Source: an uncultured bacterium
GTDB taxonomy: Bacteria > JAGOEH01
Reading direction: 5' to 3'
DNA: 64,000 nucleotides
Assembly: GCA_964632485.1 (NCBI GenBank)
Contig: CAZWDO010000001.1
Location: 186,001 to 250,000 of the forward strand
This document shows, one piece after another, positions 29,885-42,819 of the stretch. How positions within the stretch are numbered: position 1 is the first letter of the stretch; every line of letters begins with the position of its first letter. The notes beneath the pieces were generated by a model. It was not told the origin of the DNA. It saw only the letters and a list, made by a program, of their open reading frames with translations, and did not search any database. A program made the translations under genes and the position numbers.

Positions 29885-31852
29885 GTGTTCCTAAAAAAAC
29901 TATTTAAATATATTCATTTATATGGGTTGATAATAATACCATTTCTACCACCCGTTGAGCCACAATCTACAGTTACATTGTTTAATCAAGATTATCAGAT
30001 TGTAAAGTACGAAGATAAATTATTAGTGGCATTGGGAGAAAACGGCCGAATAGAAACCCAACGTTATCCGATTATTTTTCATGCTGCCTATGCGCAACTT
30101 TTCCCCCATGCTCATATTGCGTTACTAAATCATCTCGTTCGATATCGCGCTATTCTTGAGGATTCTGTCCAAAATCCATATACCCATGTGTTCCAAAATG
30201 TTATCGAGCTGATGGAAGACACGTCAGTCATTGGGAAAGCTGCTCTGTGGCAAGCTGTGGAGCAGTTGTCTGAACGTTATAATGAAGCATTGCTCATCCC
30301 TCTTACACCGGAACGGGATATTTTTTTTGGGGAGATTAATCGCCTAATTACACAAAAAAATGGCATTTCTGACAATTTTCCACTTTTCCTATCGACCTAT
30401 ACCGAATTATTGCTCAACCAAACCATGGAAGAATTTGCCCTGGCTTTCCGCTTGATTGATGAGGAATTCCCGCTATTTACACGCCGTAGTGAACTATTGA
30501 GATTCTACAATTTATTTCAGAGAATTCAGCAAAGAAATCTGCCTCTGAGCGAATTAAGCGATGAACTTGTCGAAATCCGCCAGAAAATCCAACCATTTTA
30601 CTTCAACCTGCTGAATTTTCAGCATCGATACTATCAAAATCGTCTAGGTTGGTATCGTTTGACTAAAAATTTTTTTTTCTACCAATGTCCATTTCTAACT
30701 CAACCCTTTGAATTAAGAAGCTTGGTTGAGAGCTATCATTATGCTGATTTTATTAAAACTTCCATTATCATTAAGAAATATTTGGATGCCACAATCATTC
30801 AATTTTCTCTGGTTATACTTTTATTAATATGGGCGCTCCTGATCGGCATCCTTTTTTTCCGTCATTCCGTTAAAAAAAGGTGGATGCAAATAGTCATGGC
30901 CGGCTGGGGATTTTTAGCAATTTTCATTATGGCCCACATTGCCTGGTTTCATTTTACAACTCGATCACTCCTTAACGAGGAGAAAAACTCCTTTCAATGG
31001 CGTGAGAAGATAGAGCAACAATTAAAATTTCAAAGTAGTTGGCGGGATTCAACCTTTATATCACCCACTCATATTCTTGACAGCATCAATCAACTTAATC
31101 TATTAGTGTTGGGCAAGGGTGGGGAAACGCATCGCGATAAAAAGACCGGTCGCACTTTAGGAACCGAACTAACTGATGTGATTATGGCGATCCAAATCGA
31201 TTTTAACCAGCATCATATTAATTTCATATCGATCCCTCGGGATTTGTTATATCAGGAACAAAAGATTAACACGCTTTATCATCGACTGGGACCTCGCAAG
31301 ACCCAGCAAATCATCCGAAAAATTACGGATATCCCCCTGAGCAACTATGCGGTTTTCGATTTTGAGATATTCAAGGATATCATCGATTTAATTGATGGGC
31401 TGACCATTAACAATTCCCATGACATTAATGACAACCAATGGTTTCAATTGCCCATGGGCACATACCATTTAAACGGCCAACAATGTTTAAAATATGTTCG
31501 CAGCCGGAGAAACAGCTCCGATTTTGCCCGCGCGTACCGACAGCAACAAGTTATGATGGAATTATTGAAAAAAGTGCAAAACCCACAAGAATTAAAAAAA
31601 TTACTCTATAAAAAATTCTATTCGCTGGCGCTGCTTTATCAAAAAGTGGAAACTGACCTGGATATGAATATTTTGACCAGCCTGCTACAAAAGGATTTCA
31701 CTCAATTCACTTTCAGACAAATTGTTTTATCTTCGCAAAACTGTTTAATACCCAATGAAGATTTTATTACAGGTTATTATCTGAAACCCAAAGATGATAC
31801 CTGGGAATCAATTCAACGCTACATCCGCTTTAAAATCCATTACAACAATTAA
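29885..31852 (+). CDS. LytR-CpsA-Psr (LCP) family protein with large N-terminal extension
   Basis: C-terminal LTDVIM, SIPRDL, KINTLY, YVRSR, SDFARAYRQQQV; two TM segments in the middle. Confidence 0.85.
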   Translation: MFLKKLFKYIHLYGLIIIPFLPPVEPQSTVTLFNQDYQIVKYEDKLLVALGENGRIETQRYPIIFHAAYAQLFPHAHIALLNHLVRYRAILEDSVQNPYTHVFQNVIELMEDTSVIGKAALWQAVEQLSERYNEALLIPLTPERDIFFGEINRLITQKNGISDNFPLFLSTYTELLLNQTMEEFALAFRLIDEEFPLFTRRSELLRFYNLFQRIQQRNLPLSELSDELVEIRQKIQPFYFNLLNFQHRYYQNRLGWYRLTKNFFFYQCPFLTQPFELRSLVESYHYADFIKTSIIIKKYLDATIIQFSLVILLLIWALLIGILFFRHSVKKRWMQIVMAGWGFLAIFIMAHIAWFHFTTRSLLNEEKNSFQWREKIEQQLKFQSSWRDSTFISPTHILDSINQLNLLVLGKGGETHRDKKTGRTLGTELTDVIMAIQIDFNQHHINFISIPRDLLYQEQKINTLYHRLGPRKTQQIIRKITDIPLSNYAVFDFEIFKDIIDLIDGLTINNSHDINDNQWFQLPMGTYHLNGQQCLKYVRSRRNSSDFARAYRQQQVMMELLKKVQNPQELKKLLYKKFYSLALLYQKVETDLDMNILTSLLQKDFTQFTFRQIVLSSQNCLIPNEDFITGYYLKPKDDTWESIQRYIRFKIHYNN

Positions 31853-31957
31853 AGCCGGAAACCGCTTATTTATTTCGGACCGGAACCGTTCCATTAGACC
31901 ACTTCCCAGTTTACGGGCGCTTATAATATTATAGATTTGGATGGGGATGGTGAATTG

Positions 31958-33016
31958 TTAATTCAACAAGCGCTTGAGATTTTCAAGTAAATGATCGTCC
32001 ATGCGGACTTTGGTGGAAAGGACAAATGATTGGAGAGCTTGATTTTTATCAAGGCGCTGCAATTGGCTTTCAATTTGGTCCTGCCAATCCTTTTCATTAG
32101 AACTTATTGCCTTTTTAAATTCGGCCATTGCCTTTTTTATAGAGGCTTTTACGGTTAAAAGATACGCGTAGTTCAAATGCGCGAGGCTATTTTTCGGGTC
32201 CATCTCAAAAATCCGTTTAAACTCCTGCTCAGCCGCATCCCATAAATCCATGCGTCCATAGCAAACAGCCAAATTATTCCGAGCATCTGTCAGGTAAGGA
32301 TCAATTTCGATCGCCTTGCGATAATGGTCAACAGCTATCTTCAACTGTTCTCGCTCATGGTAAAAGCAACCCAGATTAAAAAATGCATCACTAAAAAAAG
32401 GATTGTAGTTGATGGCTTTTTCATAATGCCGGACTGCCAGTTCATCGCGTTTCAGGTCATCATAGACAATCGCCAGATTGAAATGAGCATCGATATAGCG
32501 TTTATTCAGGACCAAAACCTTCTCATAGGCGTCAATGGCCTCCTGCAGTTGATGATGTAATTGATAAATAAGGCCGCAGGTATAATGGTGCATTATATTC
32601 TGTTCAAGATTAGGAATCACGCTGCGTAGAGCGATTGACAGATCAGGCTGGTCATAGATAAGCAAATTAATAACATAGATAGTCCAAAAAAATTCGGGCG
32701 CAAAGCTCAACGAATTTCTAAAATAAAGGACTTTATCATCAAAGGCTTCACTAAGGATGCCCAACATCAGCATATTGACTTCATTTTCCTCGGATTTCAA
32801 CTGTTCCAAATAATCCTGATAATACTTGGAATGAGTTTGCGATTGATCCTTGAGAATCTCCCAATATAAGATATGCGCTGGTACAAAACGGGGATAGAAC
32901 ATAAGGGAGTTTCGCAAGGATCGGCATGCTGCATCAATTTTACCCTCTTTGATAAGTAGCCAGGCTTTTTGGAAACTTAGACGAGATTTTTCACGATTTA
33001 GTTGGTTGATTCTCAT
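31958..33016 (-). CDS. Tetratricopeptide repeat protein
   Basis: Tandem TPRs (AHFNLAIVY, AFFNLGCFY, ARNNLAVCY). Confidence 0.85.
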   Translation of the reverse strand: MRINQLNREKSRLSFQKAWLLIKEGKIDAACRSLRNSLMFYPRFVPAHILYWEILKDQSQTHSKYYQDYLEQLKSEENEVNMLMLGILSEAFDDKVLYFRNSLSFAPEFFWTIYVINLLIYDQPDLSIALRSVIPNLEQNIMHHYTCGLIYQLHHQLQEAIDAYEKVLVLNKRYIDAHFNLAIVYDDLKRDELAVRHYEKAINYNPFFSDAFFNLGCFYHEREQLKIAVDHYRKAIEIDPYLTDARNNLAVCYGRMDLWDAAEQEFKRIFEMDPKNSLAHLNYAYLLTVKASIKKAMAEFKKAISSNEKDWQDQIESQLQRLDKNQALQSFVLSTKVRMDDHLLENLKRLLN

Positions 33017-33050
33017 ATTAAACCTCTTGGTTTAGAATACGGGGTTAAAC

Positions 33051-33089
33051 AAAAAGAGCCGGATATCACCAATTGAAATCCGGCTTTTT
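33051..33089 (-). terminator. Rho-independent terminator after the 33103-33891 gene
   Basis: AGCCGGAT...ATCCGGCT stem flanked by A/T tracts. Confidence 0.7.
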
Positions 33090-33102
33090 CATTCATTGCA
33101 AT

Positions 33103-33891
33103 TTATTTTTCTTTTTTGATCTTTTCAATCCACTGGCGGGCGCCCGGAGTATTCATTTTGGCCAACCCCTCAAATACAACGAGAGCGTCACTTTTTTTGC
33201 CAAGTTTGTATAAGGCTTCTCCATAATAAAGTGAACTGTATTTATTTCGACTGTTCTTTTCATCATCCTTATATGTGCTGACGACTTTATCATATTGCTG
33301 GGTTTCCAGATAGCTGCGAAGCATCATTTCATAAACCTTATCTTTTTTAGAAGTCGGCAACTTCATCGCCATTACTTTTTGATAATCTTTAATGGCCTGG
33401 CCATAATCCTGGCCGTAGTAAGCGGCATTCGCCATGGAAAGTACCGGTTTATAATCATTAGTATCTAAAACAGCCGCTTTTTTAAAGGCATCATAAGCCT
33501 TGTCGAACTGCCGTTTTTCCTGATAGATATTACCCAGAAGGTTCAGAGCCTTATCATACTGCGGATTGGACTGAACCGCATCATTCGCAGCATAAAGGGC
33601 CTTGTCCAATAGATTGAGCTTTTTATAGGTCAAAGCCAACCCATATAATACCTTAAAATTCCCGGGGACCTTTTCATTTGCAGTCTGATACTGTTTCAAC
33701 GCATTCTCAAAATCATTGCCTCGATAAAAATCATTGGCTTTGCTGTAGGCTTCAGCGGCGGACAAATCGCCTTTAAATGTCGGATCATCGACCTGTCTCT
33801 GAGTCTGCTTCTGTTGAGCAAATAGTGATCCTGTCAACAGAACAACCATCGCGAGTATGGTTAAGCGTTTCAAAAACTGATGCCGTTTCAT
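33103..33891 (-). CDS. Exported tetratricopeptide repeat protein
   Basis: Signal peptide (SLFA) plus several TPRs; GAGGAGGA RBS. Confidence 0.85.
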   Translation of the reverse strand: MKRHQFLKRLTILAMVVLLTGSLFAQQKQTQRQVDDPTFKGDLSAAEAYSKANDFYRGNDFENALKQYQTANEKVPGNFKVLYGLALTYKKLNLLDKALYAANDAVQSNPQYDKALNLLGNIYQEKRQFDKAYDAFKKAAVLDTNDYKPVLSMANAAYYGQDYGQAIKDYQKVMAMKLPTSKKDKVYEMMLRSYLETQQYDKVVSTYKDDEKNSRNKYSSLYYGEALYKLGKKSDALVVFEGLAKMNTPGARQWIEKIKKEK

Positions 33892-34002
33892 GAGTTCCTC
33901 CTCTATTAGGGTTAAGTTAGTATTTCAATTACTAGTATAGCACATTCTATACCATAAATTATATCTCCTATAATTAAAACAAAAAAAACCGATTTTGTCA
34001 AG

Positions 34003-35046
34003 TCAAAAATCAGTTTTTAGCAAAAAATCATCGATTTTTTCACGGGCTACATCAAAGACTGGAATAGCCAGTCGCTGTCGGATAAAACCTACAAGCTCTT
34101 TCGCATTAATGAATTGACTATGAAAGACTGCATGTTTCTGCTGAGGAAAAAAGGGATTGAGAGTTACGGCTTGTAACCGGGAACTTTTCAAACTTTCTAC
34201 AAAGAGTTGATTTGAACGTCCTATCCAGGTAGATATTTGTCGAAAATTTCCATCTGCAATCAGGTAAAAGGGATGTCGGACAACCAGATGTAACATATTG
34301 TCCGGATTTATTTTCTCTAAAAATTCAATCAAAATCCGGGTTAAAACAAGTTTCGGCCAATACAACACAGTGTGTTCATCCGCAAAAACACGATACTGAT
34401 CCAGCATCATCCGATTAAGAAACGGTTCATCTTCATTAAATGCAACCCATAAAATTCCATTGCGGTAAATTCCGGCACGGGGGTTCTTGTCGCAAAATAA
34501 AGACGTTTGTCTAATATTCTGAAAAATTTGGAGCAGACTCATCAACTCGTCAGTCAATGTGGCAGGATCGGTATGGCGGGCTGCTCCAGTCGCTAAGAAC
34601 CAATCATCGCATACAGATAACGGGAGTATTCGGTTGAGCGCTCCATCCAGCAATACAGTAGTGACTGGCAAAGTTTCAACCGCGTTGATAACTTCAATAG
34701 CGCCGCGCAGGGAGGAAGGACCGGCGAGGAGCAGTTCCCCCCGGGATTCGATTTTTACCACGCTCAATGCGCCCAAAGGGGTAGAAAGAGCGAGGGGAAA
34801 AATCCGGGTAAAACGGGCAGTGGTTTTCTGCAAACACATCTCGGCTGTTACTGCATAATCCCCGGGATAGACCTCGATTCGCGGTTTGGGAAGCAGGGTA
34901 AGGTTATCGAACGGTTCTCCATCCAGTCCGATCGATGTTAATAGCGCCGAATTTTCGCCCAATTCCCGCAACCGCTGATGGACATGATTGAGAGTGGTGG
35001 TTTTTCCGGTATTTTTCGCTGTTCCGGCGAATCCAAGGGTTCTCAA
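34003..35046 (-). CDS. KamB-like P-loop protein (putative aminomutase reactivating factor subunit)
   Basis: N-terminal GTAKNTGKTTTLN, TSIGLDGE, KPRI, LAGPS, LDGALNR and LATGAA resemble the KamB protein of lysine-fermentation clusters. TTGA overlap with the upstream gene. Confidence 0.7.
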   Translation of the reverse strand: MRTLGFAGTAKNTGKTTTLNHVHQRLRELGENSALLTSIGLDGEPFDNLTLLPKPRIEVYPGDYAVTAEMCLQKTTARFTRIFPLALSTPLGALSVVKIESRGELLLAGPSSLRGAIEVINAVETLPVTTVLLDGALNRILPLSVCDDWFLATGAARHTDPATLTDELMSLLQIFQNIRQTSLFCDKNPRAGIYRNGILWVAFNEDEPFLNRMMLDQYRVFADEHTVLYWPKLVLTRILIEFLEKINPDNMLHLVVRHPFYLIADGNFRQISTWIGRSNQLFVESLKSSRLQAVTLNPFFPQQKHAVFHSQFINAKELVGFIRQRLAIPVFDVAREKIDDFLLKTDF

Positions 35047-36866
35047 TTAGTAAAGACCGTTCCTTTACCATTCCGCCCCGGATAGGCGCCTTCCTCGGGA
35101 TTACCCAGCGTTCCCCCGGAAATAGCATGGACCAGGCTTTCTTTTTGCGCGCACTCCTGCAACACTTTCAAAATATTTTCACGCAATTCATCGGCAAAAA
35201 CGACAGCGCGGGGACCCGGCGTCAAATTATCCGCTCCCACATCACGGAACATTTCCTTCAGCCCATTGAGAGTGTCGATTTTGGCGGGAATAGTGATCGG
35301 CCCCCGGGAATAGGCTTCATCGGTAGAAGCGACCGTAATTGCATCTACTCCGGCTCCTGCGGCGATCAGGGCATGCAGGGTTGTTGTGGTCGCCGACTGA
35401 ATACGTTCTTCCTGATGAGTTATAAACCCGATCGGTTCACCCGGCCAGATTGGCGCGTTAATAATGCTACGCAACGCCATGATTTTCGCAACATTATAAT
35501 CAACATAGTTTTCATCCGCCTGGCCATTCACCATCACTTCCGGCGAAATACAGAACAAGGGTTTTAGAATCGGCTGAGCGCCCAACAACCGTCCCAGCAT
35601 CGCCACAGCAATCATCCCTGCATAGGCTTTATAAGCAGGCACTCCGCAGAGTTCCTCATTCGTCGGAATATCAAATGGCAAGCGATAGGACGCGGCGCTT
35701 TTAAGACAATCCAACCCATCCACTAACAGCCGCTCAGGATCAGTTCCCGCCCCCAAAGCGCCATATACCATATTAATTTTCGTCAAATCCGCGCCCAACT
35801 CCCCGGCGAACATCGCCGTTTCGGGGGTATTCAATCCGCGATGAGCCCGAATCGACCAAAGGGTATAAGGCTCCAAAGCTCCGCCGACTAAAGCCAAATT
35901 TTCCGGCGTCATAACTGAACCATCTTCCTGGTGGGTAATATAACCGGCAAGGAATCCCTCAGTACGCGCACCCCAGGAGGGATCGAAATGAAGAACACCA
36001 TCGGAACCCCAGGCTTCACTCACTTTAATATGCATGATATCCATAAAAGGACATCCCGTGCCATATTGTGTAAAAACCAGGGGACGGCGGCGATGACGCA
36101 ATATCCGGACCGGATCGAAACTGCCTTTAACCTTACGGACCAATTGTTGAATTTGGAGCATTTCAGTTTCACTCAACCGTCGTGTTTTAGCGGGCAAGAC
36201 GCCATCCCTGTAATATCGGATCACTGTTTCATCCGCATAAACTAAATACCTTCGAATAAAGTCCTGTTCAACCTGGGAATCAATTCCGCCTGACTTACGC
36301 CACTGGATCCATTCCCGTCGGATCCGGGCGCGTTCAATACCCGGCGACGAGCGCTTCTGGTAATATGTTATCGTTTTCTCGGCAATTTCTTCCAGAAGAG
36401 GCGCAAATCGATCATCCTTTATCCGATAATCATAACCTTCCGTCAGATCGGGTTTGGTTTTAATGATCTTAAGCATATTCAGATCAACTTCCCGTTCTTC
36501 AATATAGGCTAACAGATATTCCAACGGTTCATCCTTGGAAAAACCCATATCAAAACCAAGTTCAGCCGCTAATGGTTTGGTAACGGCCATCCCTCCGATA
36601 ACAATTTTCATCCGATCCCGCAATCCCGCCGCATCCAGAACATCCAAAAAACGGGAGAGAAGTTCAGCAACTCCGTAGCCCAGCGTACGGCTAACTAACA
36701 AATAATCCGGCTGAAATTCGGCAACGGCTGATAGAATATCTTCATTTTTAAGGTCAGGCGGCAATAACCGCGCCTGATGGTGCCGGCTTTCCAATTCACG
36801 CTTGATGACCTTCAGCCCCACATCATGAACCGGATCGTAAGGCACAAGCAAAACACGTTTACTCAT
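35043..36866 (-). CDS. Cobalamin-binding domain fused to a lysine/ornithine aminomutase-type TIM barrel (putative AdoCbl-dependent mutase)
   Basis: N-terminal DPVHDVG...LLVSRTL...IVIGG...LAAELGFDMGF (B12 Rossmann domain). C-terminal PLVFTQYGTG..D......GSD, GLNTPETA, MVYG...ERLLVD and ITVASTDEA align by eye with KamD/OraE. ATG at 36866 follows AAGGAG. Confidence 0.8.
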   Translation of the reverse strand: MSKRVLLVPYDPVHDVGLKVIKRELESRHHQARLLPPDLKNEDILSAVAEFQPDYLLVSRTLGYGVAELLSRFLDVLDAAGLRDRMKIVIGGMAVTKPLAAELGFDMGFSKDEPLEYLLAYIEEREVDLNMLKIIKTKPDLTEGYDYRIKDDRFAPLLEEIAEKTITYYQKRSSPGIERARIRREWIQWRKSGGIDSQVEQDFIRRYLVYADETVIRYYRDGVLPAKTRRLSETEMLQIQQLVRKVKGSFDPVRILRHRRRPLVFTQYGTGCPFMDIMHIKVSEAWGSDGVLHFDPSWGARTEGFLAGYITHQEDGSVMTPENLALVGGALEPYTLWSIRAHRGLNTPETAMFAGELGADLTKINMVYGALGAGTDPERLLVDGLDCLKSAASYRLPFDIPTNEELCGVPAYKAYAGMIAVAMLGRLLGAQPILKPLFCISPEVMVNGQADENYVDYNVAKIMALRSIINAPIWPGEPIGFITHQEERIQSATTTTLHALIAAGAGVDAITVASTDEAYSRGPITIPAKIDTLNGLKEMFRDVGADNLTPGPRAVVFADELRENILKVLQECAQKESLVHAISGGTLGNPEEGAYPGRNGKGTVFTN

Positions 36867-37111
36867 GAAACCGCTCCTTCTGCGTTTAACGATCCGAGCC
36901 ATGAATAAACAGCGCCCGGACGGTTAAGATACACTCTGGCCCGGACCCGGGCGCCGAATCCGCGAAAATCAATCGATAACAGATCCGTATCCTCAAACCC
37001 CCGTTGCTCAAAAAATTGCAGAATTAACGATTTCGCTTCCTCAGGGCTATCACAAAGCAAAAAAGTCTCTAAATCAAAGGCATCGACAATTGCCTGTTCG
37101 GCAGTGCGCAT
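36863..37111 (-). CDS. Small protein resembling the OAM/KamE dimerisation domain
   Basis: 82 aa, AAAGGAG RBS, ATGA overlap with the next gene. The pattern D..DLETFL...PEEAK......RGFED......G.G......Y resembles the KamE N-terminus. Confidence 0.6.
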   Translation of the reverse strand: MRTAEQAIVDAFDLETFLLCDSPEEAKSLILQFFEQRGFEDTDLLSIDFRGFGARVRARVYLNRPGAVYSWLGSLNAEGAVS

Positions 37112-37188
37112 AATGACTCCTTTCACAATTTCGGCACAAATACTGCAATAATATTGTAATTAAGAAATTTAACCCAGGCAGGTAAACC

Positions 37189-37380
37189 ATGAAACGAAAT
37201 CTTCATCGCTATCTTCTCACACAAATTCAGGTCTGGCTCGAGTGGGACGAAAAAAAATCGTTAAAGTCTTGGGTCGATACTTACTCGGAAATATTCTGTC
37301 AGATCTATCAAAAATTTCCCGGTGACTGGGAAAAAATCAAACAGGAAATGATCCAAAGGGAAAACCACGCCCTTCATTAA
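37189..37380 (+). CDS. Hypothetical small protein
   Basis: 63-aa ATG ORF filling the gap, divergent from the mutase operon, with its stop abutting that of lolA. Confidence 0.5.
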   Translation: MKRNLHRYLLTQIQVWLEWDEKKSLKSWVDTYSEIFCQIYQKFPGDWEKIKQEMIQRENHALH

Positions 37381-38006
37381 TACATTTTTATTTCTTCAAC
37401 TCCAATTTTTTTTGAATACTCAAAAAATTCAGGTTTTTCACGAAATTTCCGATCAAATTTCGTTAGAGCGACCCGGGTCACTGTGTCGTTTTCATCCCGC
37501 ACGATGAGCAAAACCGGGGCTTTACTTTTCAATTCATAGTAGATTTCGATGAGAGAATAGGGGATTTGCTCCGCGCCTTCGTTGCGGACCAAACGAAACC
37601 ATCCTCGCTCTTTTTTATCAACACTTTTTTTTCCTATGGAATCCACGCTAAAAAAAGCATCAATATCGGAACTCATTATCAGCAACTCAATCGGACTTTG
37701 GATACCCTGGCGGCGATGAATGATTGTCTGCTTGTTAGGTTTATCATAATTCCATAAAAAAGCCGATGTCGCAAATATTTCCAAATCTTCAGTTTCTAAC
37801 CGGTAATAGTTGGGCAACATAAAATAGAACTCACCCTCTGATTCATTAATCCGGTCAATGGACTCATAGATAGTTTTTTCCTGATAATGAAACTTGAAAC
37901 CCGGCAATTTCTTTATTTCACTGGCCCAATTTAGATAAGCTTCCCGGGGGGGTTCCGCTCGCGCGAGAACTAAACTGATCATTAGTAAAAATATAGATCT
38001 TACCAT
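37377..38006 (-). CDS. lolA: Outer-membrane lipoprotein carrier LolA-like protein
   Basis: Signal peptide; EGEFYFMLPNYYRLE and LWNYDKPNKQ pattern. Confidence 0.72.
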   Translation of the reverse strand: MVRSIFLLMISLVLARAEPPREAYLNWASEIKKLPGFKFHYQEKTIYESIDRINESEGEFYFMLPNYYRLETEDLEIFATSAFLWNYDKPNKQTIIHRRQGIQSPIELLIMSSDIDAFFSVDSIGKKSVDKKERGWFRLVRNEGAEQIPYSLIEIYYELKSKAPVLLIVRDENDTVTRVALTKFDRKFREKPEFFEYSKKIGVEEIKMY

Positions 38007-38009
38007 ATC

Positions 38010-41000
38010 TTATTCCTCCTCAATTAACGGTTCCAAAGGTTTGATTATTTCCAATATACGCTGTTCAAGAATCATCATATCGACCGGTTTAAGCAGCGGC
38101 ATGGGACAGCCCTCGACGCAAGCGCGCACTGCAACATGATTAGGGTCATAGCCGAAAGCCGTCATGAAAAGGACCGGTGTATCCACATGTTCGGAGCGGA
38201 TTTTCTGAAAAAGTTGGTACCCATCCATTTCCGGCATTTTGATATCTGTAAGGATCAACTGATAAGAACGCTGACGGATTTTAGCCAGAGCTTCGCTCCC
38301 ATTGCTCACCATATCGACTTGCGCTCCCAAACCCATTAAAAACCGGCTGACATCCGTCCGGATTTCTTCTTCATCATCCGCGACAAGGATGAGATAATTT
38401 TTAAGGCGCTGTTTTTTCCCCATGGGTTTTAGATCGATCATTTTAATATCATGGGCATAAGCAACATCATCCGCCGCCTCATCATCACTCAGTACTTTCA
38501 GACGATCCGTAATATTTTTGATTCGATAAATCTGTTTCCAGATTGTCCGCGCGCGGACAAGATTATCATTAGAAGGGGGGGACCCCTGTTCTTGCTCCCG
38601 GATCATCACATTAATAGATTCAAATAAATTCCGCGTGTTATCCATGATAATTTGCAACGGATTGTTAATTTCATGAGCCACAGTGACAGCAATTTTATTG
38701 ATCGTATCCAATCGTTCATTTTTTCGGCGGATTTCCGCCAGTTTAATATGCTCAGTCATGTCTTTTGCAATCATCTCGATACCGATCGGCTGCCGTTTCA
38801 GATCACGTAAAACGGAAACTGAAATTGAAACAGGTATCAGTTTACCTTCCATGGAACGCATATAGGTTTCCCAATCCTGGATATGTCCTTGAGCGCTGTC
38901 TAAAAGGATACTATACATCTTATGACATGCCGTCGGGTCTTCAAACAATGTTGTAACTGAAAGATTGAGCACATCCGCAGACTGGAAATGCAAAATACTC
39001 TCCGCGCTTTTATTAAAAAGTACAATCCGGCAGTCAAGGTCCACTGTAATAATTATTTCGGAACTGCTCTCGATCAGATTCGAGAGATAAAGTTTCGTGT
39101 CGAGAAGTTCTTTATAGAGATTAACCATCGTAAACATATTGGCGGCCTTATTCGCGAACAGCTCAAGGATTTGGATCATTGATTCATTCGGCCGCAAACC
39201 GTCAAAGGGATCATCAAAGGAGATACAACCCATAATCACCCCATTGACCTCGAGGGGAATGAAAAGCATATCATCGGGATGCCAATTGATAAAGGATGAA
39301 ATTTGAAAATGGCTGGGAATCGTCCGCCCCGCCAGCAATTTCATCACATGGCTATTATGAGGGATCAAATAGGAATGTGAAATGCGCCATTCATCAACCA
39401 TTAGCGATAATCGTTCACTTTTTGATAAAAACCCCTTTTCTCTCAGCTTGTTGATTTCCTCCCTGCTAATCCCTGTATAACCCAAGTGACGAGGTTGCCA
39501 ATCCTCGTCAAAAATTGTCAGCAGGGAACGCCGAAAGAGGTGAGCGTCGGCAACTGATTGGCATAATTGATTCAGCAGTTCATCAATTGGCATCTCCATG
39601 TGTATGTTCAAATCCACTTTTAATAGCTGGTTCAAGGCAACATTCTGCATTTGAATGGCGGAAAGCGTTTGCTGAAGCCGCAACTCCAACTGCTTCTTTT
39701 CCGTAATATCACGGGCGATGCCCTCATATAAGATATCGCCCTCACGGGTAATCAAATGTCGTATGCGCAAATCCACCCAACAGACACCCCCCAGTTTTGG
39801 AACCATCGCCAGTTCAGTCTGATAATCTTCCAACTGCCAATTAGTGAGTGATTCAGCCGAATCGACATCAAGGTATTCCCGAATGTTGTGGTTAATCAGA
39901 TCGGAGGGTTTATAATTCAGAATTTTTTCTAAAGTGGCATTGACATTTAAAATCGTCAAATTGGAATCAAATGTGAAAATAATATCAGCGGCATGATCGA
40001 AAAGGTTGCGATAGCTTTGTTCCGATTCTTTCAAACGATCATAGACAAGAGCCAGATCAAGCACCATCTGGCCAATTTTAACCACACTGTAAAGCCGGTT
40101 CGTATTTTCCAAATTGAGGGGGTCTTTAGAAAATTTATTATTGCCATAGATAAACGCCTTAAAATGATTGCGATCATCCATCACCGGAATTAAAGCAAAA
40201 GGTACAGCTCCCAACGCGGAAACGATTTTTCGGTTGACGGGAGTCTCGGGCAACGGTGAGTTGAAAACAAGGGGATAATTTTGATTCTTTTGCATCATCT
40301 CAGAAAAAACATGGAGTTCACAGAGCGGTAACTCAAGGTAGCGCACAAATCGATTCAATTGTTGATCTGTTTGTTTACTAAAATTCTCAATCAGATCGCT
40401 GATGCTTTTATTACTTAATTTATTCAGATTTTGATAATATTCAGTCTCGGTTGAGGGCCCAATTGCCCAAATTGGTTGTAGAGTTTGGGATGTTTCATTG
40501 ACAATCCATAAAACCGCCTGGTTAAAATTCAGTTCGACCGTGGCATAGGTCAACAAGATAAAAGCGACTTCCTGGAGATCGATCGCTTTTAATAAATTGG
40601 TCGAGGTTTGAATATAGTTATTAAAATCATTAATAACTTTCTGATATTGTTCTTTCATGAAATCGAATTTTTTTTCCAGGGAGGTTTCCAGGACAATTGT
40701 ATTAACGCTTTGATTTTTTTGATTTAAGAAATTAGTAACCTCGGTAGATATCTGCGCTAAATTAAAGGGTTTGCGGATAAACCCATTGACGCCGTTGGCG
40801 CTAAGTTTCGATTCTAACTGATGATCTGAAACTCCACTAATGGCAATAACAGGGACTGTGAGATAACGGGCAAGAGAACGGATTTTAGTGACGATGGCGA
40901 AACCATCGAAATCAGGCAAATTCACATCAGTAATAATCAAGTCGAAACTATCCCGTTCAATGAGCGCCAAAGCATCATGTCCGGACCCTGCGGTTTTAAT

Positions 41001-41084
41001 TTGAAATTGGTTTAATTGGAAATATTCTTCTAAAAAAGAAAGGATTTCCGGGTCATCATCGATGATTAGAATCCGTTCATTCAT
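38010..41084 (-). CDS. Cytoplasmic signalling protein REC-GAF-PAS-GAF-PAS-HisKA-REC (no HATPase domain)
   Basis: Two receiver domains, two PAS, two GAF-like regions and H-box VAHEINNPL. No N/G boxes. Confidence 0.85.
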   Translation of the reverse strand: MNERILIIDDDPEILSFLEEYFQLNQFQIKTAGSGHDALALIERDSFDLIITDVNLPDFDGFAIVTKIRSLARYLTVPVIAISGVSDHQLESKLSANGVNGFIRKPFNLAQISTEVTNFLNQKNQSVNTIVLETSLEKKFDFMKEQYQKVINDFNNYIQTSTNLLKAIDLQEVAFILLTYATVELNFNQAVLWIVNETSQTLQPIWAIGPSTETEYYQNLNKLSNKSISDLIENFSKQTDQQLNRFVRYLELPLCELHVFSEMMQKNQNYPLVFNSPLPETPVNRKIVSALGAVPFALIPVMDDRNHFKAFIYGNNKFSKDPLNLENTNRLYSVVKIGQMVLDLALVYDRLKESEQSYRNLFDHAADIIFTFDSNLTILNVNATLEKILNYKPSDLINHNIREYLDVDSAESLTNWQLEDYQTELAMVPKLGGVCWVDLRIRHLITREGDILYEGIARDITEKKQLELRLQQTLSAIQMQNVALNQLLKVDLNIHMEMPIDELLNQLCQSVADAHLFRRSLLTIFDEDWQPRHLGYTGISREEINKLREKGFLSKSERLSLMVDEWRISHSYLIPHNSHVMKLLAGRTIPSHFQISSFINWHPDDMLFIPLEVNGVIMGCISFDDPFDGLRPNESMIQILELFANKAANMFTMVNLYKELLDTKLYLSNLIESSSEIIITVDLDCRIVLFNKSAESILHFQSADVLNLSVTTLFEDPTACHKMYSILLDSAQGHIQDWETYMRSMEGKLIPVSISVSVLRDLKRQPIGIEMIAKDMTEHIKLAEIRRKNERLDTINKIAVTVAHEINNPLQIIMDNTRNLFESINVMIREQEQGSPPSNDNLVRARTIWKQIYRIKNITDRLKVLSDDEAADDVAYAHDIKMIDLKPMGKKQRLKNYLILVADDEEEIRTDVSRFLMGLGAQVDMVSNGSEALAKIRQRSYQLILTDIKMPEMDGYQLFQKIRSEHVDTPVLFMTAFGYDPNHVAVRACVEGCPMPLLKPVDMMILEQRILEIIKPLEPLIEEE

Positions 41085-42619
41085 GAAAACAGGTCCCGAT
41101 CCAGGGCGCGGTACTGGATAGCTTCACTGATCTGGTGAGCTTTAATAGATTCGCACCCTTCCAAGTCGGCAATGGTTCGGGCCACCTTGAGCACTTTATG
41201 GTAAGCGCGTACGGAAAGATGAAGTTTTTCCATTGCCAGTTGTAAAATATGTTGACTTTGAGTATCGGTAGTACAAATCGATTTGATTTGACGACTGCTC
41301 ATGTGCGCATTAAAAAAAACGGAACTATGGTTTTTAAATCGTTTGAGTTGAACCAAACGCGCTCGTTCAATACGCTGTCGAATATGGGCAGAATTCTCCG
41401 GGTGATCGGATTGCATAATCTTTTGATAACTTGCGGGAGGCACTTCAATATGGATATCAATTCGATCCAGTAGCGGACCTGAAACCTTACTGCGGTATTT
41501 TTGGATTTGCAAGGGGCGGCAGATACATTCCCTGCGGGGATCAGTCAGGAAACCACAGGGACACGGATTCATCGCCGCGGCCAAAATAAAACGAGCTGGA
41601 TAGGTTAACGTCATGGCGGAACGCGCAATCGTAACAACGCCATCTTCCAGTGGCTGGCGTAAGGCCTCCAGTACATTGCGCCGGAATTCGGGAAATTCAT
41701 CCAGAAAAAGAACGCCATTATGAGCCAAACTGACTTCACCCGGGCGGGGGATCTGCCCACCCCCGATCAGTCCCGCATCACTTACCGTATGATGAGGGGA
41801 ACGGAAAGGGCGCTCGCGAACCAGAGGCTGGTCAAGAGGCAACAATTTAGCTGCAGAATAGATTTTAGTTGTTTCAATAGCTTCTTCTATGGACAATTCC
41901 GGTAAAATTGTCGGAAACCGACGCGCCAACATGGTTTTACCCGATCCGGGAGGGCCTACTAATATAATATTATGTCCGCCGGCAGCGGCAATTTCCAAGG
42001 CGCGTTTCGGCGCTTCCTGGCCTTGAACATCCGAAAAATCAATCGCATAATCGTTAATACGCTGGTATGCGACACTGGCCGATTGACGGGAAGTAATCGA
42101 CTCATCCCCCTGCAAAAATTCAACAACCTCTGATAAATTGGATAGCGGAACCGATTCAACCCGTGGTACTAATGCCGCTTCTTCAGCGTTTACCGCAGGA
42201 AGGATAATTTTGCTGACTCCCATTTGCTGCAGCGACGAAACAATTGATAATACACCGCTAACCGGCCGCAATTCACCATTCAATGCCAATTCTCCGATAA
42301 GCATATAGCGCCCTAATTCGACGTTCTTCAATCGGAGTTGATTGGAAGCCCACAGGATGCCAATAGCGATCGCCAAATCCAGACTGGAACCTTCTTTACG
42401 CAATTCAGCAGGAGCCAGGTTGACAGTAACCCGTTGCAAAGGCATTTGGAAACCACTATTCTTCAGCGCCGAAGTCACTCGTTCCCGACTTTCCTTCACA
42501 ACGGGATCAGGCAATCCCACTGTCTGAAAATTGGGCAGTCCCGGAGTAATATCGATCTCAACCTGAACAGGGTGAGCCTCAATTCCAATCAATGTACAAG
42601 AAAAAATTCGTGCAACCAT
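41081..42619 (-). CDS. comM: YifB/ComM Mg-chelatase-like AAA+ ATPase
   Basis: VNLAPA, GPPGSGKT, PFRSPHH, LFLDE and NPCPCG motifs. Confidence 0.93.
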   Translation of the reverse strand: MVARIFSCTLIGIEAHPVQVEIDITPGLPNFQTVGLPDPVVKESRERVTSALKNSGFQMPLQRVTVNLAPAELRKEGSSLDLAIAIGILWASNQLRLKNVELGRYMLIGELALNGELRPVSGVLSIVSSLQQMGVSKIILPAVNAEEAALVPRVESVPLSNLSEVVEFLQGDESITSRQSASVAYQRINDYAIDFSDVQGQEAPKRALEIAAAGGHNIILVGPPGSGKTMLARRFPTILPELSIEEAIETTKIYSAAKLLPLDQPLVRERPFRSPHHTVSDAGLIGGGQIPRPGEVSLAHNGVLFLDEFPEFRRNVLEALRQPLEDGVVTIARSAMTLTYPARFILAAAMNPCPCGFLTDPRRECICRPLQIQKYRSKVSGPLLDRIDIHIEVPPASYQKIMQSDHPENSAHIRQRIERARLVQLKRFKNHSSVFFNAHMSSRQIKSICTTDTQSQHILQLAMEKLHLSVRAYHKVLKVARTIADLEGCESIKAHQISEAIQYRALDRDLFS

Positions 42620-42819
42620 AATCGATCCATCGTTCAAACAGATATTGGCGAACTACAATCGTTCATGCTTCATGAAGAGATCAGTTTGCGATTCCGGGTT
42701 TGGCATTATTATTCTTTTCCTTGCCCGACAACTGCAACATATTCAGCGCAAATAGACTACATACGATACACCAAAAAAATAAAAGAATATAACGGCTAAA
42801 AAGCAGTTAAATCGGTAAA

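Follow-up and report, generated by a model that had tools for sequence, protein, structure and literature searches.

A 64,000-nucleotide stretch of DNA from an uncultured bacterium (lineage JAGOEH01; assembly GCA_964632485.1, contig CAZWDO010000001.1, positions 186,001 to 250,000 of the forward strand), called the window throughout, carries on its reverse strand a three-gene cassette whose middle gene encodes a protein with a B12-binding domain, homologous to the aminomutases KamDE and OraSE and referred to here as the mutase. The machinery with which those enzymes hold pyridoxal 5'-phosphate (PLP) has been lost from it: the lysine of the Rossmann loop, both phosphate arginines, the phosphate loop, the serine at the pyridine nitrogen and a flanking tyrosine. 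At somewhat better than even confidence, we take the mutase to be an adenosylcobalamin-dependent radical isomerase which descends from KamDE, works without PLP and accommodates its substrate in the former cofactor pocket. That it would be an adenosylcobalamin radical enzyme is suggested by its lineage, by a KamB-like partner and by a conserved glutamate of the kind that acts on the adenosyl ribose.

To our knowledge, only about a dozen kinds of adenosylcobalamin-dependent isomerases and eliminases have been described; a requirement for PLP as well is found only in the two aminomutases. A literature search, whose reach did not extend to supplementary files, found nothing on the mutase family. 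Residue numbers given below refer to the 607-residue form of the protein, and 12 has to be added to obtain the numbering of the 619-residue open reading frame (ORF).

Loss of the PLP-lysine loop from the B12-binding domain

In KamE and OraE the Schiff base with PLP is formed by Lys144beta and Lys629, respectively (PMC3958899). An original prediction, made from the window alone, had stated that this lysine lies 11 residues after the cobalt-ligating His, and the rule holds in 31 of 31 KamE and 15 of 15 OraE sequences of a reference set taken from genomes (32 KamD, 31 KamE, 15 OraE and 14 OraS, the window's own genome included). The same prediction had read a Leu at this position and no loop in the mutase, as is indeed the case: in the segment HDVGLKVIKRELE (ORF residues 26-38) the residue at +11 is Leu37 of the ORF, and none of the 183 distinct mutase sequences over which all residue counts for the family were taken has a Lys there (Leu in 169, Ile in 8 and Phe in 6). 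From the His to the next strand there are 20 residues in 182 of the 183 sequences, compared with 24 in OraE (15 of 15) and 28 in KamE (22 of 31 KamE sequences matched the search pattern), the loop of the mutase being shorter by four and eight residues, respectively. Alignment of the mutase profile with the C-terminal domain of OraE (hhalign, 97.5%) places a four-residue gap exactly at the D-I-K-H of OraE, which is the Lys629 loop.

Neither lysine of the L-K-V-I-K segment takes the canonical PLP position: the one at +5 from the His is invariant and sits on a helix, and the one at +8 is variable (55 of 183). The small protein encoded directly upstream cannot supply the PLP lysine either, since no Lys is invariant in 25 aligned sequences of it.

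When the family profile was compared with the sequences of the Protein Data Bank (PDB), the best match was KamE (8t0v_C, 65 bits, E 3.7e-17), and only the B12 domain was matched. The cobalamin motif of the mutase is D-P-V-H-D-[VI]-[GA] (window 36825-36836, reverse strand), with Asp at His-3 and Pro at His-2 in all 183 sequences. The His and the Gly/Ala of the DxHxxG motif are in place, whereas the motif itself reads DAHTVG in KamE and DEHSVG in OraE.

The remodelled barrel pocket

The phosphate of PLP is contacted in KamD by Arg184, Arg268, Ser189 and the amides of Gly187-Ser189, while Ser238 binds the pyridine nitrogen, Tyr263 stacks on the ring, and Tyr236 and Asn299 make further contacts (PMC3958899). 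In OraE, His182 is among the ligands of the substrate carboxylate, Glu81 binds the substrate alpha-amine, and Glu338 acts on the adenosyl ribose and has a facilitating role at the C-Co bond (PMC3958899). The KamD residue numbers of the literature were transferred to the genome sequences via alignments with PDB entries. Arg184, Tyr236, Ser238 and Arg268 are invariant in the 32 KamD and 15 OraE sequences.

Residues of the mutase were paired with those of KamD and OraE by profile alignments (hhalign) at 14-19% identity, and not by structure. The alignment with KamD reached 87.4% (E 3.7e-6, 393 columns, query 154-591 on KamD 14-485); against KamD alone the register was wrong after residue 483, and it was correct with a merged KamD and OraE profile, which gave 83-96.4% over four settings. 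Residues D276, E303, E349, Y368, R379, D383 and E517 are invariant in the mutase, KamD and OraE families, which supports the register. The motifs [WY]-G-A-x-T-E-G-F and Y-G-x-L...[DN]-P-x-R are matched without gaps in every run, and E517 pairs with the ribose glutamate of OraE, Glu338. A competing pairing of H-F-D-P-S-W with H-Q-D-P-Q-Y of OraE, which would keep the stacking residue and an Arg, came from a weak HMMER match (-1.6 bits) and was rejected, every hhalign run giving another register.

In these alignments Arg184 is replaced by Asp295 (Asp in 183 of 183) and Arg268 by residue 373 (Ala in 106, Gly in 77), a nine-residue deletion removes the phosphate loop Gly187-Ser189, Tyr236 is replaced by Ala341 (Ala in 182 of 183), Ser238 pairs in three of the four settings with Arg343 (Arg in 183 of 183), and a gap falls at Asn299. 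Only the stacking Tyr263 is kept, as Tyr368 (183 of 183), so that one of the five invariant barrel contacts of PLP survives. Lys363, likewise present in all 183 sequences, pairs with Leu258 of KamD and with His182 of OraE, and Glu405 with Asp298 of KamD and His225 of OraE. The profile alignments thus reproduce in every point the barrel alignment of the original prediction, which had pointed to the segments FDPSWGA, LTKINMVY and LGA (all present in the mutase), to the replacement of the phosphate arginines with retention of the stacking Tyr, and to a barrel Lys at the position of an active-site His of OraE; the lysine of LTKIN proved fully conserved and the phosphate pocket is not intact.

Because the canonical Rossmann lysine is missing, one of five barrel contacts is left and the phosphate loop is deleted, the mutase cannot hold PLP in the manner of KamDE or OraSE, and the invariant Asp at the place of a phosphate Arg argues against PLP in its old pose. 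As far as these alignments go, the former PLP pocket is lined by the invariant charged residues Asp295, Arg343, Lys363, Glu405, His293, Arg340 and His342, together with Tyr368.

A PLP-dependent aminomutase in which the cofactor has been re-anchored is a rather unlikely reading of the same pocket. The internal aldimine would be made by Lys363, where barrel strand 4 ends, with Tyr368 stacked against the PLP ring and Arg343 opposite its nitrogen. The phosphate would be held by a Gly-rich loop with Thr375 and by the N-terminus of the next helix, and there would be no 'lock' between Rossmann domain and barrel. Such an enzyme would explain why Tyr368 is invariant and pairs with the stacking Tyr263, and why Lys363 is invariant, five residues upstream of Tyr368, at the OraE His182 position in the substrate pocket; moreover, the closest relatives by fold and sequence are two PLP aminomutases, and the neighbouring genes described below point to amino-acid substrates. 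Nevertheless, both phosphate arginines are gone, one of them in favour of an invariant Asp that should repel the phosphate, the phosphate loop is deleted, Tyr236, Ser238 and Asn299 are not kept, and a separate PLP enzyme is co-conserved with the mutase, which already accounts for PLP chemistry in the pathway.

Fold and comparison with known enzymes

An AlphaFold2 model of the mutase, built from 47 homologues, reached a pLDDT of 88.1 and a pTM of 0.83. Foldseek ranked KamD first (8t0v_A, E 4.8e-16; 1xrs_A, 6.6e-16), then OraE (1.5e-11) and then glutamate mutase E (GlmE, 5e-10). VIA-align superposed residues 150-607 of the model on residues 10-502 of KamD 8t0v_A with Z 32.2 and a root-mean-square deviation of 3.7 A over 389 aligned residues; GlmE followed at Z 26.8, OraE at 25.2 and methylmalonyl-CoA mutase at about 20.

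KamDE (PDB 1XRS, 8T0V, 9Q1A) is therefore the closest system, both in the fold of the barrel and N-terminal helical region and in the profile of the B12 domain; besides, its KamB is related to the partner protein of the mutase cassette and the N-terminal domain of KamE resembles the small upstream protein. It differs in that the domain order of the mutase is permuted, with the Rossmann domain fused N-terminal to the barrel chain, in that KamD has Leu258 where the mutase has Lys, and in that the mutase lacks the Lys144beta loop and a match to PF09043. OraSE (PDB 3KOW-3KP1) has in common with the mutase the C-terminal motif Y-P-x-R-x-G of OraE, and Gln267 of the mutase takes the position of Glu81, the alpha-amine ligand of OraE. 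In OraE, however, the barrel comes first and the Rossmann domain last, the reverse of the mutase, and OraS is a separate N-terminal piece (OraS ORFs match positions 6-100 of PF09043); the mutase also lacks Lys629 and the phosphate contacts IRTAGQS and LYR of OraE.

GlmES (PDB 1CB7, 6H9E) provides the second-best structural match to the barrel (Z 26.8, root-mean-square deviation 3.1 A, 336 aligned residues). This adenosylcobalamin enzyme, which needs no PLP and has an amino dicarboxylate as its substrate, is the working model for the mutase, whose S-x-D-E-A at strand 8 resembles the K-T-P-H-E-A motif of GlmE, with its ribose-binding Glu330. Comparison of the mutase with 20 GlmE sequences gave no significant profile similarity (hhalign, 0.5%) and no PF06368 match was found; GlmES has a GlmL-type accessory protein and unfused subunits, where the mutase cassette has a KamB-like protein and a fused chain.

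The B12 domain also allows a non-radical reading, a methylcobalamin corrinoid protein fused to a methyltransferase-like TIM barrel, which we regard as highly improbable. Single-sequence matches of the domain to 1y80 (E 8.5e-10) and MtgC (40.7 bits) are as good as those to KamE, and pterin-binding TIM barrels stand lower in the VIA list at Z of about 16. On the other hand, KamE scores higher than 1y80 with the family profile (65 and 43.7 bits), the barrel resembles that of KamD at Z 32 and has invariant residues in common with it, the ribose-binding Glu among them, a KamB-like reactivase is conserved alongside, and no methyltransferase partner is conserved in the neighbourhood.

Several observations were made in the course of these comparisons. 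The profile alignment of KamD with OraE (99.9%) pairs OraE Glu338 with the Glu of L-T-E-A in KamD (residue 410 in the KamD of the window's genome, about 411 in 1XRS), and not with Glu341, the counterpart proposed in PMC3958899. The OraE numbers of the literature run three ahead of the index of 3kow_A, starting somewhere between index 182 and 222. Two candidate relatives were discarded: a 607-residue ORF of another genome with a weak PF09043 match, which is a chemotaxis receptor, and ORFs of 550-615 amino acids with weak PF06368 matches, which are members of another family, marked by C-V-H-V-A-G. An unannotated family of 544-593 amino acids with this motif in an N-terminal B12-like domain was seen in loci L152-L157 (for example L155:2041-3696 and L157:2143-3795, both on the reverse strand); its C-terminal part matches PF06368 weakly (18-31 bits), and it is related to the mutase in the B12 domain only.

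Organisation of the cassette

The features of the cassette are collected in Table 1. The stop codon of the small protein overlaps the ATG of the mutase (ATGA), and the stop codon of the mutase is overlapped by the start of the KamB-like gene. The mutase consists of a B12-binding domain followed by a helical region like the N-terminus of KamD, a KamD-type TIM barrel and C-terminal helices.

Table 1. Cassette genes, mutase domains and active-site codons in the window
Feature	Position	Strand	Remarks
Small protein, cassette gene 1	36863..37126	-	87-residue ORF; about 80 residues in relatives
Mutase ORF	35043..36902	-	619 residues
Mutase gene from Met13	35043..36866	-	607 residues; ATG 36864-36866; start set by homologues and alignment
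KamB-like protein, putative cobalamin reactivase/chaperone subunit	34003..35046	-	347 residues
B12-binding Rossmann domain	36498..36860	-	PF02310; without the PLP-lysine loop of KamE/OraE
Helical region after B12 domain, aligning with N-terminal part of KamD	36117..36419	-	hhalign and VIA
TIM barrel and C-terminal helices, remodelled active site	35046..36101	-	hhalign pairings, invariance
Cobalamin-motif His codon	36825-36827	-	
Asp307 codon (Asp295 in 607-residue form)	35982-35984	-	
Arg355 codon (Arg343 in 607-residue form)	35838-35840	-	
Lys375 codon (Lys363 in 607-residue form)	35778-35780	-	
Tyr380 codon (Tyr368 in 607-residue form)	35763-35765	-	
Ala385 codon (Ala373 in 607-residue form)	35748-35750	-	
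Glu529 codon (Glu517 in 607-residue form)	35316-35318	-	

Among the Pfam families, PF02310 is matched at ORF residues 19-118 (38.9 bits, cut-off 32.1); for the other 479 residues Pfam offers nothing, not even at E<=10. Searches with PF09043 in the genome of the window and in five other carrier genomes did not pick up the mutase. With NCBIfam, the B12 domain gives weak matches to MtgC, KamE and OraE.

The small protein has no Pfam or NCBIfam family. It aligns with residues 22-58 of KamE (hhalign, 88.9%, E 2.4e-6), less well with the same region of OraE (517-567, 27%) and hardly with OraS (0.3%), and probably corresponds, by this profile comparison, to the KamE N-terminal domain, encoded as a gene of its own. 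The arrangement thus resembles a KamE split in two, with the Rossmann half fused to KamD. Prediction of a complex between the small protein and the mutase gave a median of 0.44 against 0.57 for the control. The KamB-like protein scores 159.3 bits (E 1.1e-46) against the reactivase_KamB model NF052386, whose cut-off is 210, whereas canonical KamB proteins encoded next to KamC/KamD score 304-313 bits.

Gene neighbourhood and substrate

The arrangement of the cassette is conserved. In the best 80 of 313 stretches that encode a relative of the mutase, found by a pattern scan of 185,579 species genomes and used for all the locus counts given here, the gene immediately before the mutase encodes a homologue of the small protein in 78 loci, and a KamB-like homologue, mostly directly downstream, is present in 70. 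A fold-type-I PLP enzyme of 488 amino acids, remote from DgaE/SelA and with an S-M-D-K motif, accompanies the mutase in 59 loci with a mean column identity of 76%. Other frequent neighbours are a flavin adenine dinucleotide (FAD) oxidoreductase (56 loci), DUF6917 (50), a GntR-FCD regulator (46), RidA (41) and a 462-residue membrane protein grouped with DcuC/GntP-type transporters by the ESM Atlas (29). A literature search for DUF6917 found no paper, supplementary files being outside its reach. In Desulfosporosinus sp. OT (L035 and L064, one contig) and likewise in Desulfosporosinus sp. BG (L055 and L078), the whole cluster occurs twice on a single contig, at a distance of about 17 kb, with DUF6917, RidA, PLP enzyme, FAD oxidoreductase, small protein, mutase and KamB-like genes.

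In the window's genome, the PLP enzyme (58.6% identity) and DUF6917 occur as a pair on another contig, whereas tblastn with the FAD oxidoreductase, RidA and the other context genes found no homologues there, diaminopimelate dehydrogenase not being among the queries. As only these two partners were found, the core set would consist of them and the three-gene cassette. The pair was also considered as an analogue of OrtB/OrtA, and BLAST found no similarity; spermidine synthase, agmatinase and GNAT genes downstream of the cassette in Thermoanaerobacterales loci were judged to form an unrelated neighbouring operon.

Some loci give a hint of the substrate. DapF (240-245 bits, cut-off 115) lies directly upstream of the cassette in nine of the 80 loci and diaminopimelate dehydrogenase (281-288 bits, cut-off 181) in five, all of them in Pseudothermotoga and one Atribacterium, both proteins being above their equivalog cut-offs. 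In other loci there are genes of Asp/Glu-racemase-like, DAO (3 of 80), D-cysteine-desulfhydrase-family and 3-hydroxy-D-aspartate-aldolase-like proteins, as well as LD-carboxypeptidase, D-Ala-D-Ala carboxypeptidase and peptide or TRAP transporters. The common theme of the neighbourhoods, D- or meso-amino acids as they occur in peptidoglycan, is a lead. The literature on diaminopimelate degradation with a cobalamin aminomutase, searched without supplementary files, contained nothing bearing on the mutase family.

The canonical KamD/KamE and OraS/OraE are also encoded in the window's genome, and two of five other carrier genomes have no PF09043 protein; the mutase is thus independent of the canonical enzymes. 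In that genome (G000), the canonical pair kamD-kamE lies at C2:64227-66541 (reverse strand), and behind it come two ORFs of about 218 amino acids. A putative ornithine cluster with OraS and OraE, whose neighbouring ORFs are assigned by length and position only, lies at C16:47837-50447 (reverse strand), and a run of four ORFs, putatively kdd-kamA-kamB-kamC on the same grounds, at C7:49323-54284 (forward strand) with a second KamB-like gene (102.8 bits against 159 for the copy in the window).

Proposed reaction and the role of Lys363

According to the PLP-free reading that we prefer, the Rossmann domain of KamE is fused ahead of a KamD body, the N-terminal domain of KamE being probably left as the 80-residue protein, and the KamB-like partner would repair or reload the cobalamin. 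The substrate itself would occupy the former PLP pocket; it would probably be an amino (di)carboxylic acid of D- or meso-configuration, small and zwitterionic, that derives from cell-wall peptides, for example diaminopimelate or a product of it. A 5'-deoxyadenosyl radical would start a 1,2-rearrangement without PLP, while an anionic or carbonyl group on the substrate would be bound by Lys363, as the carboxylate is by His182 in OraE. Deamination of the product would fall to the separate PLP enzyme, with DUF6917, and RidA and the FAD oxidoreductase would help in many genomes. Lys363 may simply bind an anionic group, since it aligns with a residue which in OraE is a ligand of the substrate carboxylate.

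Some observations weigh against this proposal. Tyr368 is kept and invariant, which is unexpected if no planar cofactor or group sits there, and the Arg at the pyridine-nitrogen position, together with the G-A-G-T loop at the former Arg268, could form a different PLP site. The low identity behind the residue pairings, with one of four settings pairing Arg343 differently, makes them provisional, and even His-on binding of the cobalamin is conjectural because the motif departs from DxHxxG. No KamC-like gene (MutS-like ATPase) is found among the conserved neighbours in the 80 loci. The link with diaminopimelate comes from nine of these loci and is absent from most of those of Firmicutes, and DapF and the dehydrogenase could be ordinary genes of lysine biosynthesis.

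The invariant lysine also invites a covalent role. Lys363 could form a Schiff base with a carbonyl substrate, such as L-2-amino-6-oxopimelate from the neighbouring dehydrogenase or another 2-oxo or imino acid, with the iminium carbon migrating in a radical 1,2-shift; we find this decidedly unlikely. In carbon-skeleton mutases it is a thioester carbonyl or an acrylate group that migrates, and 2-methyleneglutarate mutase, a cobalamin-dependent single chain of about 600 amino acids in which an sp2 carbon group is shifted, would be a parallel in chemistry; genes of nicotinate fermentation were not seen in the 80 neighbourhoods. In the model, the invariant Lys363 closes a barrel strand at its C-terminal end, within what was the cofactor and substrate pocket, and makers of imino or oxo acids occur in the same operons (diaminopimelate dehydrogenase, FAD oxidoreductase and DAO, at the frequencies given above), as does the imine-handling RidA. 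Such chemistry is, however, without precedent, and no covalent role has to be invoked for a lysine placed where a carboxylate is bound; three other lysines of the family, K19, K413 and K461, are invariant to the same degree, and in the window's genome the tblastn search, in which the dehydrogenase was not a query, gave neither an FAD oxidoreductase nor a RidA homologue.

The boldest version combines both covalent roles: Lys363 would be a covalent catalyst, either through PLP bound in the barrel or through an iminium with a 2-oxo or imino acid such as 2-amino-6-oxopimelate, the carbon of a C=N group would migrate by a radical mechanism of a new class, and this would be the key step in the anaerobic breakdown of diaminopimelate or cell-wall D-amino acids. 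We consider it unlikely.

The original prediction had offered three readings, namely a PLP-independent enzyme, PLP attached through the barrel and a direct Schiff base with the substrate. Its premises stand, as the canonical hold on PLP is lost and the barrel lysine is invariant; sequence and fold do not separate the three, though, and it had overlooked that a lysine at this position may serve to bind a carboxylate. That any of these would be new chemistry is fair for the KamDE/OraSE clade, but the PLP-free glutamate mutase already acts on an amino acid.

Distribution of the family

A word-indexed search gave 1069 relatives among 8000 candidates scored, and the best 120 of these 1069 are 592-651 amino acids long, 51-73% identical and without informative names. 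With the barrel alone, a filter-free scan of 1.84 billion representative proteins returned 44 matches at E<=0.001, of which one is a further full-length protein (614 amino acids, 47%), one has 553 amino acids and the rest, of 355 or fewer, are probably fragments; no KamD or OraE was among them. The pattern scan mentioned above found 364 matching stretches, of which the 313 encode a relative. Carriers include Atribacterota, Thermotogota (Pseudothermotoga), many Bacillota, Sumerlaeota, Delongbacteria and one genome of Treponemataceae, with mutase identities of 50-72% across these phyla. Database annotation of the family goes no further than 'B12-binding domain protein', or names it erroneously as a subunit of methylmalonyl-CoA mutase. 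In terms of these searches, it is a tight and isolated sister family of KamDE/OraSE with no remote sequence relatives.

The G+C content is 48.4% at 34001-36000 of the window, compared with 39.7% at 32-34 kb and 43.6% at 36-38 kb. This contrast, together with protein identities of 50-55% across distant phyla, suggests that the cassette moves horizontally. The genes that flank it in the window (29885-33891 and 37377-42637) look unrelated to it: Pfam matches identify a LolA-like protein (37377-38006) and a TPR protein (33103-33891), and by translation only there are a second repeat-rich protein (31958-33016), a 655-residue membrane protein, a 1024-residue protein like response regulators and sensor kinases (38010-41084) and a YifB/ComM-like ATPase (41081-42637).

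Implications

The mutase represents a widespread and unstudied B12 enzyme, and the route by which it probably performs a radical rearrangement would be new to the aminomutase group. Identification of its substrate would add a new B12 reaction and would probably reveal a missing route of anaerobic catabolism, possibly for diaminopimelate or the D-amino acids of peptidoglycan. It would also set right annotations on which metabolic reconstructions of uncultured anaerobes draw, and the contribution of PLP to radical 1,2-shifts could be studied in the family as in a natural experiment.

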